A stretch of DNA of 64,000 nucleotides from a virus (taxonomy: Duplodnaviria > Heunggongvirae > Uroviricota > Caudoviricetes), in the IMG/VR virus record IMGVR_UViG_3300036670_000258, positions 97,412-161,411 of that record, one strand, 5' to 3'. The position numbers and the translations under genes are program-made. Shown piece after piece: positions 5,048 to 63,860 of this stretch; position 1 is the first letter of the stretch, and the number at the start of each line of letters is the position of its first letter. A model generated the notes under the pieces. That model saw nothing but the letters and a program-made list of their open reading frames with translations, had not been told where the DNA came from and ran no database searches.

Positions 5048-5140
5048 GATAGTGGTGTTTTAGATTGATTAATTATTATATATAAATCTAATCAATTTTG
5101 GGTTAAGAAAGAAATAATTAGTGTTAACATTTTGTTAAAG
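5048..5140 (-). promoter_or_regulatory. conserved intergenic promoter cassette (plus-type sequence in minus orientation)
   Basis: Exact reverse complement of the about 90-bp element found upstream of the plus-strand genes (TTGATTAGATTTATATATAATAATTAATCAA core). Confidence 0.5.
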
Positions 5141-5218
5141 TTTAATCATAATATAGATTGTTATTTCATTAGACTCTAGCAATATACATAATAGGAATGG
5201 AAGATTACTAGATCTTTG

Positions 5219-5338
5219 TTAAAGTCTAGTGTCATGTGTCGGCACTACCATATTAAATACTGAATCCACTACTGACTCCCTTACTGAATCCACTACTGAC
5301 TCCCTTACTGAATCCAGTATGTGTTTACCTAGTTTCAT
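5219..5338 (-). CDS. MKLGK tetrapeptide-repeat mini-protein (short copy)
   Basis: MKLGKHILDSVRESVVDSVRESVVDSVF... Contains an exact 24-bp direct repeat x2 (5261-5308). Confidence 0.35.
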   Translation of the reverse strand: MKLGKHILDSVRESVVDSVRESVVDSVFNMVVPTHDTRL

Positions 5339-5558
5339 AACTTAATAATTTAATGTCTACTGAATTCATGATTGACTCCCTTACTGAATTCGTGATTGAC
5401 TCCCTAACCGAGGACCCTACTAACTCCCTGACTGAGGCCCCTACTGACTTCCCTACTAAATTTCCTACTGGTGTCCATATTGAATTACATATTATGCTAC
5501 TTAATGAATTACTTACCGAATCTCCTATAGGAGCCTCCATGGGTTTACCTAGTTTCAT
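5325..5558 (-). CDS. MKLGK tetrapeptide-repeat (SVxx)n protein
   Basis: MKLGKPMEAPIGDSVSNSL... period-4 S-V-x-x repeat. Confidence 0.5.
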   Translation of the reverse strand: MKLGKPMEAPIGDSVSNSLSSIICNSIWTPVGNLVGKSVGASVRELVGSSVRESITNSVRESIMNSVDIKLLSYETR

Positions 5559-5806
5559 ATTTTAATATTTATTGAATTACTTACTGAATACCGTATTGGC
5601 GCCTTTACTGGCAACCATATTGACTCCATCACGGACGTCCCTACTGAATCCCCCACTAGTGTCCATACTGAATCCCGTATTGATGTTCCTATTGAATTCC
5701 TGACTGAATCACATACTGACTCGCTGACTGAATCCCCCAATGATATCCATATTAACTCCCCCACTGAATCCCCTAGTGGAGAATTTATCGGTTCACTTAA
5801 TTTCAT
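5555..5806 (-). CDS. MKLGK-family tetrapeptide-repeat protein
   Basis: MKLSEPINSPLGDSVGEL... same repeat family. ATGA start/stop overlap with the downstream copy. Confidence 0.5.
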   Translation of the reverse strand: MKLSEPINSPLGDSVGELIWISLGDSVSESVCDSVRNSIGTSIRDSVWTLVGDSVGTSVMESIWLPVKAPIRYSVSNSINIKI

Positions 5807-5814
5807 ATTTTAGT

Positions 5815-5990
5815 ATTAATTATTATATGTAAATTTAATCAAATTATAGACCTTTTAAAAATATTTAGTGTTAAATATATGTTAAAGTTTAATATAGAAT
5901 TTAACAAAACTTTAACACTAAATATTTTCATGTTAACCCAAAAATGATTAGATTTACATATAATAATTAATCAATATAAAACACCACTAT
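5815..5990. promoter_or_regulatory. divergent promoter region with back-to-back copies of the conserved cassette
   Basis: Minus-type tatatgtaaatttaatcaa...gtgttaaatatatgttaaagttt, then plus-type tttaacaaaactttaacac...ttgattagatttacatataataattaatcaa, directly before the ATG at 5992. Confidence 0.55.
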
Positions 5991-5991
5991 T

Positions 5992-6204
5992 ATGATCAGA
6001 AAATTAGCAAAATTCGAAGTTGAAAATCTATTAACAATACCAAATTGGAAAGATTCTTTTTATTTGGAAATATTCAAGGTTAAGGTTGACGAAGATGTAA
6101 ATGGAAGTATTAACGAATATTACTTAGCTGAAACTACAAAACAAGTTATTGATATGATTGCCAAACAACCTCAACGTCCGGAAATGGTTATCAGTAGAAT
6201 TTAA
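5992..6204 (+). CDS. hypothetical protein
   Basis: 70 aa ORF, ATG about 25 nt after a plus-type promoter cassette. Confidence 0.45.
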   Translation: MIRKLAKFEVENLLTIPNWKDSFYLEIFKVKVDEDVNGSINEYYLAETTKQVIDMIAKQPQRPEMVISRI

Positions 6205-6291
6205 CAAAAAATTAACACTAATTATTTCTTTCTTAACCCAAAATTGATTAGATTTATATATAATAATTAATTAATCTAAAACACCATAATC
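6205..6291 (+). promoter_or_regulatory. plus-type promoter cassette copy
   Basis: tttaacaaaaaattaacac...ttgattagatttatatataataattaattaa, then ATG at 6292. Confidence 0.5.
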
Positions 6292-6504
6292 ATGACAAAG
6301 AAAAACGCACTTAATCAAGACCGAAACAAAACCAAAGCACAATTCAAAGCAGACTTCGATGCTGTTTTAGCAAAGGCATTAGCAAACAAGTCTATTAATA
6401 CTGAATCTTATCCAACACCAACAGGGACTAAATATGTTAGTCGTAATGGTATACCACACAAAATAGTAAATGGTCAGTGGGTACCACTAACTAAAATCAA
6501 CTAA
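6292..6504 (+). CDS. hypothetical protein (Lys-rich)
   Basis: 70 aa ORF after a promoter cassette copy (6205-6291). Confidence 0.45.
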   Translation: MTKKNALNQDRNKTKAQFKADFDAVLAKALANKSINTESYPTPTGTKYVSRNGIPHKIVNGQWVPLTKIN

Positions 6505-6554
6505 TAGCTGAAACTTTTTATCAAACAAATATATAACTATAAAATAACAATCAT

Positions 6555-7691
6555 ATGTCTATCTCAACTCTTTCAAATACAATAATTGAAACACGTAAAG
6601 TTCAAACATTAGAAGCACAAAATCTACGCAAGGTAGTACCATTCAGGGATATTAATATTATCGATGGAGAAACATTAGAATATAATGGTACCCGCATCAC
6701 GATAACGAAATCAGCTTTTAAAAATCTTTTAGGCTTACTTGGAATGTCAGCCACATTCGCAACTAAATTTGAAACCCTTTTTACTAAAGAAGCAAAGGCA
6801 CAATTCATTAATACTATGAAAAATGCAATGGCATCTAATTCAGGTAAATTGTCTGAAGTAACATTGGTTCTTAATCCATATACAAAGACTGTTGTTGCAA
6901 TTACAAAGAGGGACGATATTGGTATATCTAACCAACAATTCATGAATGTGGCTGAAAACATCATTGACAACCATTCAATGGATGTTAAGGATTGGTCAAT
7001 TGACCCAGGTACTGGAATCATTACAATTAATGCATTTAATCCAAAGGCTAACTTTGCCGTTGATGGATTATCAAATGAAGTATTTACAGGAGGTGTAACA
7101 TTTAAAAATTCACCAAGAGAGGGTTTCCAAGTATTACCATATGTAAATCGTCAATGGTGTTCAAATGGATTAACAAGTCAATTTGCAGCTGAAGCATATA
7201 CTCTATCTTCATTAGATAGTGGTTCTATGGAGAAGTTCTTTGAAAATTTAAATGAACTTCGTAAAAATAACTTTGCACCTACTGGATTTGCGGATCGTGT
7301 TCGTATTGCAAACGCTACTCCAGCATCACTTAGTGAAATTGGATTTGGTCATAGATTAATTGAGCCATTTGCAGGAGAACGTTCATCTAACTGGATTCCT
7401 TACGCTGAAAACATGAATGCATATTACAATGCAGGATATGATCAATTAACTTCTGATCAATTACGCGGTGCTAAAGGTAACACTTCAGTATGGGATGTTG
7501 TAAATGGAATTAATCACTTTGCATCTAATGGTGCTGGTATTATTGATACTAACATGCAAGACTACAATGCAACTGACCTAATGATTAAGGCTGGTAATCT
7601 TTTTGGAAAGAAATCATTTGACCATGAAAACCAGATGCCAAATGTATTTGGTAACCGTGAATTATTAAGAGGTGGTAGTTCGTTAAACTAA
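6555..7691 (+). CDS. hypothetical protein
   Basis: 378 aa ORF. Followed by a hairpin+T-run terminator at 7752-7778. Confidence 0.55.
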   Translation: MSISTLSNTIIETRKVQTLEAQNLRKVVPFRDINIIDGETLEYNGTRITITKSAFKNLLGLLGMSATFATKFETLFTKEAKAQFINTMKNAMASNSGKLSEVTLVLNPYTKTVVAITKRDDIGISNQQFMNVAENIIDNHSMDVKDWSIDPGTGIITINAFNPKANFAVDGLSNEVFTGGVTFKNSPREGFQVLPYVNRQWCSNGLTSQFAAEAYTLSSLDSGSMEKFFENLNELRKNNFAPTGFADRVRIANATPASLSEIGFGHRLIEPFAGERSSNWIPYAENMNAYYNAGYDQLTSDQLRGAKGNTSVWDVVNGINHFASNGAGIIDTNMQDYNATDLMIKAGNLFGKKSFDHENQMPNVFGNRELLRGGSSLN

Positions 7692-62811: not shown

Positions 62812-62942
62812 ATTTAGCGGACCGGGAGAATTTCGAAATCTCGACCCGATGCCTAACAAACATCCGCTCTTCCTCTGAGCTACCGATCCATTATCCGTCT
62901 TTCCGGATTGTCGTTTGACGTTCAGCATTACCTTTAACGTTG

Positions 62943-63015
62943 TGCGGATTACAGGTTACGATCCTGTCTCTCATGGGCTTCAACCATGTGCTTTCACCAG
63001 ATTAGCTTAATCCGC
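62943..63015 (-). tRNA. tRNA-Phe (anticodon GAA)
   Basis: Acceptor GCGGATT/AATCCGC perfect, anticodon arm CATGG-TTGAAGC-CCATG, T-arm ACAGG-ATCGTAA-CCTGT. Confidence 0.65.
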
Positions 63016-63100
63016 AATTACATAATATCAGGGCCTAACGGGTTTAAATTCCAATACGTTGACATTATGTTTTAATCAACTTTAACATGTTAAAGTTTAG

Positions 63101-63181
63101 TGGGACCGGGTGGACTCGAACCACTCCCTTTCGGACGAGATTTACAGTCTCGCTGCCGTATCCGAACGACTTTCCAATCCC
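63101..63181 (-). tRNA. tRNA-Tyr (anticodon GUA), type II
   Basis: Acceptor GGGATTG/CGGTCCC, anticodon arm CGAGA-CTGTAAA-TCTCG, long variable arm, T-loop TTCGAGT. Confidence 0.6.
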
Positions 63182-63186
63182 AATTG

Positions 63187-63276
63187 ATTTTGTGATAGGA
63201 CTTGAACCTATACGAAGACCTTGCGGTAACTTCAACCCTTAGAATGGGTAGTGTATCCCAATTTCACCACACAAAA
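63187..63276 (-). tRNA. type-II tRNA with unusual anticodon loop ATTCTAA (UCU); identity uncertain
   Basis: Acceptor TTTTGTG/CACAAAA, anticodon arm ACCC-ATTCTAA-GGGT, structured 20-nt variable arm (GAAG..ACC..GGT..CTTC), T-arm ATAGG-TTCAAGT-CCTAT. Confidence 0.4.
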
Positions 63277-63375
63277 CAACTATCTTTAAGAAGACTGTAA
63301 TCTCCAAATAAATAGACTAGTAAATGCAATTAACGATATTACAGTACCGTATTTATATACACCCAACTAATTTTG

Positions 63376-63446
63376 TACCTCGTAGTGGAATCGAACCACT
63401 GCCAATTGCATGTAAAACAATTACGCTTCCATTACGCCAACGAGGC
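63376..63446 (-). tRNA. tRNA-Val (anticodon UAC)
   Basis: Acceptor GCCTCGT/ACGAGGT, anticodon arm ATTGT-TTTACAT-GCAAT, T-arm AGTGG-TTCGATT-CCACT. Confidence 0.5.
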
Positions 63447-63665
63447 AAATCTAATTCTATGCTAGCAATATGTAGCTCTATGTATTAGTAACAGTCTCAT
63501 CAGTGTACCCCTGGTAGGTAATGCTCCTACTTCCCCTAGTTAAAAGCTAGGTGCTTCACTTTAAAGCATCAAGGGCGTGTAATTATAAGTACTCTAAGTT
63601 CTTCTCTCTCCTTTAAATATAACTTAGAATGTTTTGGGAGATACTTATAATTAAGATTTTATTTG

Positions 63666-63749
63666 AAGAAGGTGTGGGATTCGAACCCACAACAGTATAA
63701 CCTGTTACTTGTTTTCAAAACAAGCTCCTCATCCACCCGGATACCTTCC
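63666..63749 (-). tRNA. tRNA-Ser (anticodon UGA), type II
   Basis: Acceptor GGAAGGT/ACCTTCT, anticodon arm CTTGT-TTTGAAA-ACAAG, long variable arm, T-arm GTGGG-TTCGAAT-CCCAC. Confidence 0.65.
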
Positions 63750-63769
63750 ATTTAGTATTATCAATATGT

Positions 63770-63860
63770 CAATTAACGTTTGTTTTTAATTATAAGTAAA
63801 TATAATCAAAATCTTTTAATCTTGAAAACTTTAAGTGTTAATTTTTTGTTAAAGTTTTAG
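63770..63860 (-). promoter_or_regulatory. cassette copy inside the tRNA array (between tRNA-Met and tRNA-Ser)
   Basis: taagtaaatataatcaaaatcttttaatcttgaaaactttaagtgttaattttttgttaaagtttt. Confidence 0.4.

Follow-up and report, generated by a model that had tools for sequence, protein, structure and literature searches.

The window analysed here is a stretch of 64,000 nucleotides of the virus record IMGVR_UViG_3300036670_000258 (Caudoviricetes; positions 97,412 to 161,411 of the record). It has a G+C content of 31% and carries ∼120 mostly small genes together with a tRNA cluster, and its intergenic DNA holds 27 copies of a repeated element of 65–110 bp, which we call the cassette; about 43 further copies were found in relatives. 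In gene direction the cassette consists of a distal box (TTTAACA-N4-TTTAACA), a spacer of exactly 26 nt, a promoter-like proximal box (TTGATTAnATTTACATATA) and an A-rich leader (AAATTAAAACAA) that runs up to the ATG of the next gene.

Among the products predicted in the window are serine hydroxymethyltransferase (SHMT), thymidylate synthase, an ATP-dependent DNA ligase, an exonuclease common to T4-like cyanophages and Cr30, a collagen-like tail fibre, a tRNA nucleotidyltransferase, HAD and phosphoesterase proteins resembling RNA-repair enzymes, and an HNH endonuclease. We saw no T4 core gene, and found no close cultured relative among GenBank phages by DNA or by protein. A cassette-bearing relative encodes a tail sheath, which identifies a myovirus. 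The phage SHMT is 76–77% identical to Flavobacterium SHMTs. A Shine-Dalgarno-like 4-mer precedes 7 of the 120 genes, A is found at −3 in 76% and TAAAA occurs in 59 of the 120 leaders; translation signals of this sort are of the Bacteroidota type (PMC6847099, PMC2483708). Judging by the tail sheath, the SHMT identity and the translation signals, the element most likely belongs to an uncultivated myovirus of ∼160–170 kb whose host is a Flavobacterium.

A family of intergenic cassettes

The distal box GTGTTAAATCTTTGTTAAA had 25 matches in the window at three or fewer mismatches, with 0.28 expected, and the proximal box TTGATTATATTTACATATAC had 27 matches with 0.05 expected. An 85-nt profile made from the window copies retrieved 27 copies at E < 1e-3, the first beginning at 5064 and the last ending at 63857. 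An earlier description made from the letters of this DNA (the sequence-only reading) had put the number of copies of one intergenic element at about 25, which is borne out, and had pointed to a reverse-strand copy at 5048-5140, which is the minus-strand cassette 5064-5143. It had overstated the coverage in saying that almost every larger gap carries the element: ∼17 of the 27 gaps of at least 60 nt within 24–64 kb hold a cassette.

All 27 copies are intergenic and have the orientation of the downstream gene; three apparent exceptions were traced to a crude gene model or to a downstream tRNA. The distance from the end of the proximal box to the ATG is 14–44 nt, and ∼41 nt where a tRNA lies downstream. 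Five copies are on the plus strand, in a block of plus-strand genes at 5.9–10.3 kb, and 22 on the minus strand, two of these at 5.1 and 5.8 kb and twenty across 15.5–63.9 kb. The genes served are small ORFans, the ligase, the tRNA nucleotidyltransferase, HAD, phosphoesterase and HNH endonuclease genes and one tRNA. The set thus includes nucleotide- and RNA-repair genes, while the tail-fibre block at 12–24 kb has two degenerate copies only, a distribution that gives no support to the middle or late regulon that had been proposed.

The copies are listed below by window coordinates and strand. Hairpin cassettes have a spacer that folds into a stem-loop, subfamily d is a group of copies described in the next section, and L numbers designate loci with which the window was compared. 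The last three lines give a minimal copy and two isolated sites.

5064-5143 (-): cassette of subfamily d with spacer CTAATTATTTCTTTCTTAACCCAAAA, box TTGATTAGATTTATATATAA and leader TAATTAATCAA; upstream of gene 4616-5047
5813-5890 (-): cassette without hairpin, upstream of gene 5555-5806; divergent partner of 5897-5974
5897-5974 (+): cassette of subfamily d, upstream of gene 5992-6204
6196-6274 (+): cassette of subfamily d, upstream of gene 6292-6504; the TAA of its first TTTAACA ends the upstream open reading frame (ORF)
7926-8004 (+): cassette of subfamily d, upstream of gene 8021-8332; one edge of the segment ∼8017-9988, which is absent in the 170-kb relative
9989-10069 (+): cassette of subfamily d, before a small ORF starting near 10080; the other edge of the segment ∼8017-9988
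10192-10271 (+): cassette of subfamily d, before the DnaB/KaiC-like ATPase gene 10288-11400; 11-nt inverted repeat AAAATTGATTA/TAATCAATCTT
15509-15570 (-): partial cassette with its own 18-bp terminator hairpin (folding energy dG −17.3, z −6.3) and proximal box TTGTTTATATTTACATATAA, no TTAACA repeats; upstream of gene 15029-15505
24942-25020 (-): hairpin cassette, ACTCCGTATT-TTTT-AATGCGGAGT followed by T5; before a glucosaminidase-domain gene (start near 24931)
28582-28658 (-): weak cassette without hairpin, upstream of gene 28353-28574
28763-28833 (-): cassette without hairpin, with a separate terminator ∼60 nt upstream; a small ORF starts near 28748
36017-36092 (-): hairpin cassette, stem CTCTGTAT/ATACAGAG; before gene 35758-36006; the ligase ORF stops at the cassette TAA
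37394-37473 (-): hairpin cassette, stem CTCCATAT/ATATGGAG; before the DNA ligase gene 36084-37388
39034-39088 (-): decayed cassette, repeats and hairpin intact, −7-like box deleted (TTGATTAGAT^AATTAATC)
42914-42990 (-): hairpin cassette and recombination junction; 42990-46227 is missing from L015, and ∼890 nt are inserted here in L004
44537-44614 (-): cassette without hairpin, upstream of the tRNA nucleotidyltransferase gene 43785-44531
46226-46292 (-): cassette with degenerate first repeat and recombination junction; partner of 42945 in the L015 chimera, ∼550-nt insert in L009
48198-48267 (-): partial cassette with one TTTAACA and the proximal box, upstream of gene 47912-48193
50646-50721 (-): hairpin cassette, stem ACCCTAATT/AATTAGGGT; upstream of gene 50301-50639
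51801-51887 (-): cassette without hairpin, with three 11-bp repeats, recombination junction; separate terminator 51911-51938; partner of 54398 in the L011 chimera
53383-53461 (-): cassette without hairpin, upstream of gene 52229-53374
54367-54444 (-): cassette without hairpin and recombination junction, upstream of the phosphoesterase-like gene 53694-54359
55726-55803 (-): hairpin cassette, stem ACCCTGATT/AATCAGGGT; start of a 2-kb replacement relative to L009
59228-59307 (-): hairpin cassette and recombination junction; 59307-60383 is missing from L009
60382-60461 (-): hairpin cassette, partner junction of 59259
61027-61105 (-): hairpin cassette, the top-scoring copy; after a tRNA-like 3′ end and before the HNH endonuclease gene 60460-60993
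63778-63857 (-): cassette without hairpin, between tRNA-Met (63860-63932) and tRNA-Ser (63665-63749); it precedes a tRNA, not an ORF
41737-41779 (-): minimal copy, only GTTATATTTAC and the leader AAATTAAAACAAT; before gene 41545-41736; ∼600 nt are inserted here in L015
8341-8360 (+): isolated site resembling the proximal box, TAGATTATATTCACATATAA; gene 8371-8598 begins 10 nt further on
18357-18376 (-): isolated proximal-box-like site ATGATTATATTTACTTAAAT, before gene 17799-18347

Repeats, promoter-like core and hairpins

The consensus of 156 unique copies from the clade reads aAAcT-TTAACA-aAAnt-TTAACA-cTnnanAtTTTcnngtttnnannnta-TTGATTATATTTACATAtc-aaattaAAacaaa-...ATG. In its distal box TTTAACA is repeated in tandem, in direct orientation and every 11 bp. 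Each repeat contains a TAA, so that two frames receive a stop codon, and five upstream ORFs end at these triplets. In a search that allowed spacers of 20–45 nt, 169 of the 183 unique copies of the clade had 26 nt between the last TTAACA and the proximal box (25 nt when counted between the boxes as delimited in the sequence-only reading), and the only other lengths were 25, 27, 36 or 37 nt. A third repeat is present in the copy 51801-51887 and in most members with the '+11' spacing. We had considered the '+11-nt' class as independent evidence of helical phasing and dropped it, since the 36–37-nt class is mostly a third 11-bp repeat copy. The coupling of the two boxes is not loose, the gap between them as delimited there being exactly 25 nt in every full window copy.

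The sole near-invariant feature of the spacer is T at positions 9–11, found in 95–99% of 148 distinct spacers. Position 12, the fourth base of a −33-like element, is C, T or A in 99% of them and G in 1%. The proximal box holds TAnnTTTA, preceded by TTGAT and followed by CATATA(C/A); an A ends this motif in 197 of the 198 unique copies retrieved with the last base left free, and a G in the remaining one. The TTT of the spacer sits exactly 19 nt upstream of the TA of TAnnTTTA. The sigma-A consensus of Bacteroidota is TTTG-N19-21-TAnnTTTG, with T-12 A-11 T-8 T-7 T-6 G-5 and transcription starting 4–5 nt later (PMC6847099). As a match of motifs and distances, TTTn-N19-TAnnTTTA is the geometry of a Bacteroidota sigma-A promoter with both G's replaced; the effect to be expected of the G-to-A change at −5 is judged solely from the consensus in PMC6847099. 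The proximal box had already been called promoter-like, and its position fits where a promoter should lie. The same reading had seen no match to the Bacteroidetes consensus, and on this point it needs correction, as the geometry agrees and the difference is limited to the two G's. It had also taken the boxes to be invariant, but the copy 39034-39088 is without the core of the proximal box; and the TTGAC(A/C) it had noted in the spacer lies on the non-coding strand, in 2 copies only, and is irrelevant.

The canonical TAHHTTTG does not occur within 60 nt upstream of any window gene and is not enriched in intergenic DNA. Sigma-70-like sites are at or below chance, and the cassette contains no sigma-70 consensus. 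A literature search on promoters of Flavobacterium phages yielded nothing relevant.

Some copies have the proximal box without the complete distal part and still precede genes: 15539 (15509-15570), 48229 (48198-48267, which keeps one TTTAACA), 8341, 18357 and 41737. Such copies point to the proximal box as the autonomous core.

Subfamily d comprises the copies at 5–10 kb and, in part, 37425 (37394-37473) and 59259 (59228-59307). Its members have an inverted repeat TTGATTA...TAATCAA around the putative start region. The 11-nt version, AAAATTGATTA/TAATCAATCTT, is 91% complementary and brackets the −7-like box and the putative start (10236-10274 and other copies of the subfamily); the TAATCAA arm occurs in 13 of the 156 unique cassettes clade-wide. 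This inverted repeat may be an operator.

Ten window copies have a spacer that folds into a stem of 10 bp (3–4 of them G-C) with a 4-nt loop, and T5–7 come next. Stem-loops are present in 10–11 of the 27 window copies and in 28 of the 148 distinct spacers of the clade. Five stem variants occur in the window: CTCCGTAT, CTCTGTAT and CTCCATAT form one family, ACCCTGATT and ACCCTAATT a second one, and the hairpin at 15539 is unrelated to either; three stem sequences of 6–12 bp had been reported before. The cassette hairpins have dG of −11.8 to −14.8 kcal/mol and z of −4.2 to −5.2, compared with z of about −1.1 to −1.2 for copies without a hairpin, and among coding-strand sites resembling terminators within 24–64 kb they account for 10 of the strongest 11. 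A separate terminator lies upstream of the repeats in distant relatives and at the non-hairpin copies 28786 (28763-28833) and 51832 (51801-51887).

Among the 28 hairpin spacers, both partners have changed in a compensatory manner at 7 of the 10 stem pairs, and no shuffle gave covariation values as high. Pairing is found in 96.8% of cells, a value that is partly circular because the set was chosen by foldability; the compensation, the strand asymmetry and the link to the T-tract are not circular. The mismatch-type pairs, read on the sense strand, comprise 35 G·U and 3 A·C, therefore selection appears to act on the sense RNA. A T-tract follows 28 of 28 hairpin spacers and 4 of 120 non-hairpin spacers (Fisher p = 3e-26). 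Taken together, the stem covariation, the wobbles on the sense strand and the co-occurrence of hairpin and T-tract make it very likely that the hairpin with its T-tract is an intrinsic terminator. The earlier view of the hairpins as terminators under selection for RNA structure is thus strengthened (z of −4.2 to −6.3, including the hairpin at 15539). The invariant −33-like TTT is located in the loop of the hairpin, so that the predicted terminator and promoter would be physically interleaved. At L010:6650-6800 a G+C-rich insert with CCCCAGAGCC-type repeats stands between terminator and cassette, in a phage that is otherwise AT-rich.

A different motif, ATATAAAT, is found 5–25 nt upstream of the starts of genes that have no cassette, with 37 matches in the window versus 23±5 expected. 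Its sites, all on the minus strand, are at 13108, 16171, 19078, 24055, 26162, 29231, 34094, 35137, 39740 and 58723. The motif may represent a second promoter class, being reminiscent of the T4 late TATAAATA, or it may be part of a translation leader.

Recombination junctions and distribution

We compared the window with cassette-centred loci of the 170-kb relative (95–98% identity), of a 68-kb relative (∼90%) and of other phages. The comparison with close relatives revealed 16 indel or replacement events. Cassettes account for 5.4% of the bases compared, and 13 of the 32 endpoints fell in them (binomial p = 4e-9; p = 6e-4 relative to all intergenic DNA); the choice of cassette-centred loci brings an ascertainment bias into this comparison. 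Six events had both ends in cassettes and left chimeric cassettes behind. For instance, the chimera at L015:1828 has the upstream half of 46256 (46226-46292) joined to the leader and gene of 42945 (42914-42990); further chimeras join 54398 to 51832 (L011:386), 60413 to 59259 (L009) and 7973 to 10038 (L017). Insertions of ∼550 nt (at 46237) and ∼890 nt (at 42924) bring their own cassette. The cassettes are junctions of recombination through which genes are gained and lost, as was described for the promoter early stem-loop elements (PeSLs) discussed below. The sequence-only reading had missed three properties of the element, namely the tandem-repeat nature of the distal box, the TTT in the loop and the role in recombination.

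One large event was of another sort: the window has a 2.4-kb insertion relative to two relatives (49181-49217, 51604-51660), with an in-frame C-terminal fusion at the microhomology GAAT(C/T)TG and not at a cassette.

Conservation was also seen at a larger distance. In phages ∼70% identical to the window, orthologous sites keep the repeats and TTGATTAnATTTACA with an unrelated spacer (the ligase site in L003 and two gene sites in L010). Retention of both boxes next to a spacer that differs argues that the boxes are functional. The distant phages hold far fewer copies, which suggests that the near-identity of the window copies is in part a result of recent spread and homogenisation.

When one genome was scanned for each of 185,579 bacterial and archaeal species, the composite pattern TTAACA-N4-5-TTAACA-N24-38-TTGATTANATTTACA did not occur. 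The same composite was found in 16 IMG/VR stretches and in at least 120 metagenome contigs, the largest of 93–200 kb; the contig names include ENA entries labelled 'marine metagenome'. Thus the cassette appears to be a signature of a phage clade rather than of host chromosomes. Searched alone, the proximal-box 19-mer had 18 matches in bacterial genomes, about what chance would give, and no fewer than four seem to be part of conserved coding sequence (the gene product in L216 begins like enolase).

Two bacterial sites of the 19-mer look like a cassette, both in Flavobacteriaceae. In Flavobacterium sp. Sd200 (L219:1150-1250, NZ_WUMN01000003.1) CTTTAACAAAAGCTAAACAC is followed after 14 nt by TTGATTATATTTACATATAC and, 16 nt further, by the ATG of an 86-aa gene, with repeat-like sequence upstream. 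In a metagenome-assembled genome (L226:4985-5060) a hairpin with T-tract, located after a gene whose product starts like Lon protease, runs straight into an exact proximal box.

Proposed function and alternatives

The best explanation of these observations, and in our opinion a probable one, is that the element is a PeSL-like cassette that combines promoter, terminator and recombination functions and marks the borders of transcription units in the accessory ('hyperplastic') region of a myovirus. The repeats, two or sometimes three, would lie one helical turn apart at about −62 to −45, their TAA triplets often ending the upstream ORF, and would provide a binding site, on a single helix face, for an activator, a DNA-bending protein or the C-terminal domain of the RNA polymerase alpha subunit. 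Then would come the 26-nt spacer, with TTT at about −35 as its only invariant feature, followed by TTGAT and by TAnnTTTA at about −12 to −5. Transcription would start 4–6 nt later, within CATATA(C/A), and the transcript would begin with an A-rich leader of 15–45 nt that has TAAAA and no Shine-Dalgarno sequence before the ATG. As TTTn-N19-TAnnTTTA has sigma-A geometry, the core would be read by the host RNA polymerase with a sigma-A-type factor, be it the unmodified host factor, a phage-modified one or a phage-encoded one. In ∼40% of the window copies the arms of the spacer would have evolved into a 10-bp stem, and a transcript coming from upstream would stop ∼20 nt short of the next start, so that the terminator would insulate single genes or groups of genes. 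Near-identity over 65–110 bp would allow homologous recombination between copies to delete, insert and swap genes. Since repeated cassettes are a preferred substrate of recombination, accessory genes could be exchanged as ready-to-express modules, a transferred gene remaining equipped with promoter, leader and stop signal.

Elements of this kind are known from T4-type phages. PeSLs are motifs of ∼100 bp in which an AT-rich region with a stop codon is combined with a sigma-70 early promoter, a terminator stem-loop and a Shine-Dalgarno sequence; the stem-loop lies between or over the promoter elements. They occur preferentially in front of ORFans and bring about a modular shuffling of genes (Arbiol et al. 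2010, PMC2839356; Comeau et al. 2014, PMC4122927). Like the PeSL, the cassette is a composite of ∼100 bp, repeated dozens of times before ORFans in hyperplastic regions, with indels and replacements of relatives crossing over inside the motifs; its stem-loop, too, may lie between or over the predicted promoter elements. However, its sequence is unrelated and its likely host belongs to another phylum, Bacteroidota. In place of a sigma-70 consensus there is a core of the −33/−7 type with both G's replaced; upstream of it, a particular 7-bp sequence is repeated directly in tandem where the PeSL has a generic AT-rich tract; the stem-loop is restricted to 10–11 of 27 copies, at one fixed position and with TTT in the loop; and a Shine-Dalgarno sequence is missing. 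Judged by this analogy, the element is of a kind already known, PeSL-like, in the form of a non-homologous variant in a new phage clade and a new host phylum.

With Bacteroidota sigma-A promoters the cassette shares the positions of TTT and TA..TTT, the 19-nt spacer, a compatible distance to the start codon and AT-rich sequence upstream. The differences lie in the G's, replaced by A at −5 in 197 of 198 copies and by C, T or A at −33 in 99%; in a G at −10 (TAGATTTA) in subfamily d, which is virtually absent in host promoters; and in the additional invariant TTGAT before the −7 element and CATATA after it. Upstream activation has its own parallels. T4 early promoters have UP elements, and Pho boxes consist of 7-bp repeats with an 11-bp period. 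In the cassette, too, conservation extends to about −60, and 7-bp repeats separated by 4 bp would seat two protein subunits on one face of the helix; the cassette repeats (−62 to −45) are further upstream than the Pho box or the UP subsites of E. coli. A further analogy, with the gene cassettes of integrons and with phage 'morons', was drawn for PeSLs (PMC2839356): genes travel singly, each with the signals for its own expression, into intergenic places that tolerate an insertion. In the present case, unlike in integrons, there is no integrase and no attC-type site, and genes appear to be exchanged by plain homologous recombination between repeated regulatory DNA.

Several considerations weigh against the proposed cassette function. 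Promoter activity, start site, termination, the repeat-binding protein and early timing are all deduced from DNA sequence rather than from transcript ends. Unmodified host sigma-A may not recognise the core, since both of its elements are without the G that is near-invariant in F. johnsoniae. Searching 70 of the 120 window ORFs, together with the 10 flanking ORFs in the adjoining 9 kb, against Pfam and PHROGs revealed neither a sigma factor nor a transcription-factor domain. Foldability was the criterion for inclusion in the covariation set, and the greater part of the remote copies was found with a pattern that fixes parts of both boxes. The near-identity of copies comes partly from recombination (concerted evolution), so that some of the conserved bases may not be functional. 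With respect to gene exchange, 9 of the 16 events had no cassette at either end, and microhomology was used instead in some, one of the 9 being an in-frame swap of the C-termini of two genes.

The strongest alternative concerns the enzyme. A dedicated phage factor, a sigma-70-family protein of the phage or a remodelled host sigma, could read the G-less core, with TTAACA as the site of an activator and the cassettes forming an early-middle class; we regard this as possible, on balance doubtful, and it would refine the main explanation without displacing it. A dedicated sigma or activator had been suggested before. In its favour are the almost complete exclusion of G from the last position of TAnnTTTA and from the fourth position of the −33-like element, the lack of a canonical host −7 motif at promoter positions in the window and the absence of the composite from all bacterial and archaeal species scanned. 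Moreover, a phmmer search with the C-terminus of E. coli RpoD against 3,364 ORFs around cassettes gave one match, a 286-aa sigma-70-family protein with regions 2, 3 and 4 (L070:1553-2413 (-)), and on the same marine contig, L070 (4.7 kb), two tRNAs flank a single cassette of the window type. A protein 80% identical to it is encoded in L175 (IMGVR_UViG_3300028025_007001; L175:5998-6858 (+)), and relatives of this sigma, forming a tight family, are abundant in metagenomes.

These two loci also contain a second cassette, GTAGG-T7-CCTACG-N9-11-TAnnTTTA(C/G)nTTnATAA-CAATTAAAACAAA-ATG, present in 22 copies within 12.8 kb (L175:1-12852) and at L070:2404-2506, 3480-3574 and 4376-4446. It has the same −7-like core and leader as the window cassette and another upstream module, which suggests that upstream recognition is class-specific.

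Against a dedicated factor, no sigma homologue was detected in the window, in the ORFs around cassettes apart from the one in L070, or by peptide patterns in the 170-kb relative. Among the 36 viral loci encoding relatives of the L070 sigma, on contigs of up to 640 kb, there was no close relative of the window phage, and none of the 35 loci other than L070 has a window-type cassette nearby. The genes served look early, and early genes normally need the unmodified host polymerase; the exact proximal box 16 nt before a chromosomal gene in Sd200 hints that the host enzyme can use it. The early-type gene set and this chromosomal look-alike argue for the host sigma-A, and a phage sigma as the reader of the G-less core seems a rather uncertain proposition. 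Still more tentatively, the G-less core may be a phage-specific code, read by a phage-encoded or remodelled sigma-A-type factor in a freshwater and marine clade, with upstream modules setting temporal classes and integron-like shuffling of genes. If this were true, two G-to-non-G changes would tell host and phage promoters apart, and the upstream modules would be interchangeable, the window phage having TTAACA repeats where L070 and L175, with their own genes for the 286-aa sigma, have GTAGG-T7-CCTACG.

Two other assignments of the promoter are unlikely in the extreme. A sigma-70-like promoter could be drawn with the first TTAACA as −35, 16 nt and (T/A)ATTTT as −10, making the proximal box a transcribed leader: TTAACA-16-TATTTT matches 9 of 12 positions at several cassettes, and spacer positions 7–11 are conserved as A(T/G)TTT. 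However, sigma-A of Flavobacterium, the likely host, does not use TTGACA/TATAAT (PMC6847099), and the start would fall within the terminator stem. Sigma-70-like sites are not enriched, and repeat-less copies still precede genes (15539, 48229, 8341, 18357, 41737); we rejected this assignment. Equally, the proximal box could be the ∼20-bp promoter of a phage single-subunit (T7-like) or virion RNA polymerase, given that 17–20 near-invariant bp lie directly upstream of the putative start and that the composite is absent from host genomes. Yet no RNA polymerase gene was seen in the 73 kb examined, the box splits into host-type elements at host-type spacing, and a second conserved element ∼45 bp upstream is atypical for these enzymes.

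A signal acting in RNA, like nut sites in antitermination or a processing site, is if anything less likely still. The distal CUUUAACAA would be boxA-like and the hairpin boxB-like. The boxA of rrn and lambda is UGCUCUUUAACAA, the core of which is resembled by CTTTAACAA, and in some copies the hairpin follows directly. Only CTTTAACAA matches, though: the bases 5′ of TTTAACA are not boxA-like and not conserved as such (consensus aAAcT), 120 of 148 spacer variants (81%) have no hairpin, and where there is one it is always followed by a T-tract, hence a terminator. The 11-bp period of the repeats and the rigid 26-nt (or +11) distance to the proximal box argue for constraint at the level of DNA, and we rejected the nut/boxA interpretation.

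Least probable of all is an autonomous mobile repeat of the kind of a miniature inverted-repeat transposable element, with an incidental regulatory look: many copies are near-identical and border inserted and deleted segments, but they have no terminal inverted repeats (only AT-rich partial matches and the internal palindrome) and no target-site duplications in the flanks, all 27 are followed by a gene starting 14–44 nt away in fixed orientation, crossovers inside shared cassettes carry whole genes and not the element alone, no pair of empty and occupied sites was seen that differed just by the element and a target duplication, and orthologous positions are kept across ∼70% identity, so that this origin, which the sequence-only reading had named as one of two outcomes that would refute it, was rejected.

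Seen as a PeSL-like cassette, the element would extend the PeSL idea beyond T4-like phages of Proteobacteria and would suggest that large phages have converged on a general solution. It is set apart by a −33/−7 core without the two G's, by a −33-like TTT placed in the loop of the predicted terminator and by tandem repeats upstream of the core, and the loss of both host G's is a falsifiable clue to a possible difference of the phage holoenzyme. Very little is known of transcription in the phages of Bacteroidota, a phylum dominant in lakes, oceans and guts, for which the cassette provides ∼200 aligned natural variants of a candidate promoter with a built-in terminator and a candidate activator site. 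It could also serve as a compact promoter/terminator/leader part for synthetic biology in Bacteroidota and as a marker of this clade in metagenomes.

Some further observations concern the surroundings of the cassettes. In the tRNA cluster, Rfam reports a permuted tmRNA (RF04321) at 61392-61542 (-) with 54.8 bits versus a gathering score of 47. A tRNA-like 3′ end (GGTTCGATTCCTAGGGGTCGTGCA) at ∼61103-61180 (-) abuts the cassette at 61105, with no tRNA reported there by ARAGORN or Rfam. The two programs differ at other places as well: the Rfam tRNA at 63506-63576 (-), with 37.5 bits, is not listed by ARAGORN, and the ARAGORN tRNAs at 63100-63181 and 63186-63276 are not in the Rfam table. Two regions of ∼900–970 nt (2654-3556 and 11401-12374) have no ORF of 45 aa or more, no cassette and no Rfam match.

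Beyond the start of the window, the 170-kb relative (L017:11387-16849) encodes a ClpB-like AAA+ ATPase as two ORFs, with a weak intein-splicing match. In the same region, beside the SHMT gene, there are ClpP and a second, divergent gene of the thymidylate-synthase family (65.8 bits; possibly a deoxynucleoside monophosphate hydroxymethylase), which hints at modified DNA bases. In the window itself, a SET-domain protein of 123 aa (37478-37849 (-)) is followed by a 311-aa protein (37830-38765 (-)) that has weak fn3 and intein-splicing matches.

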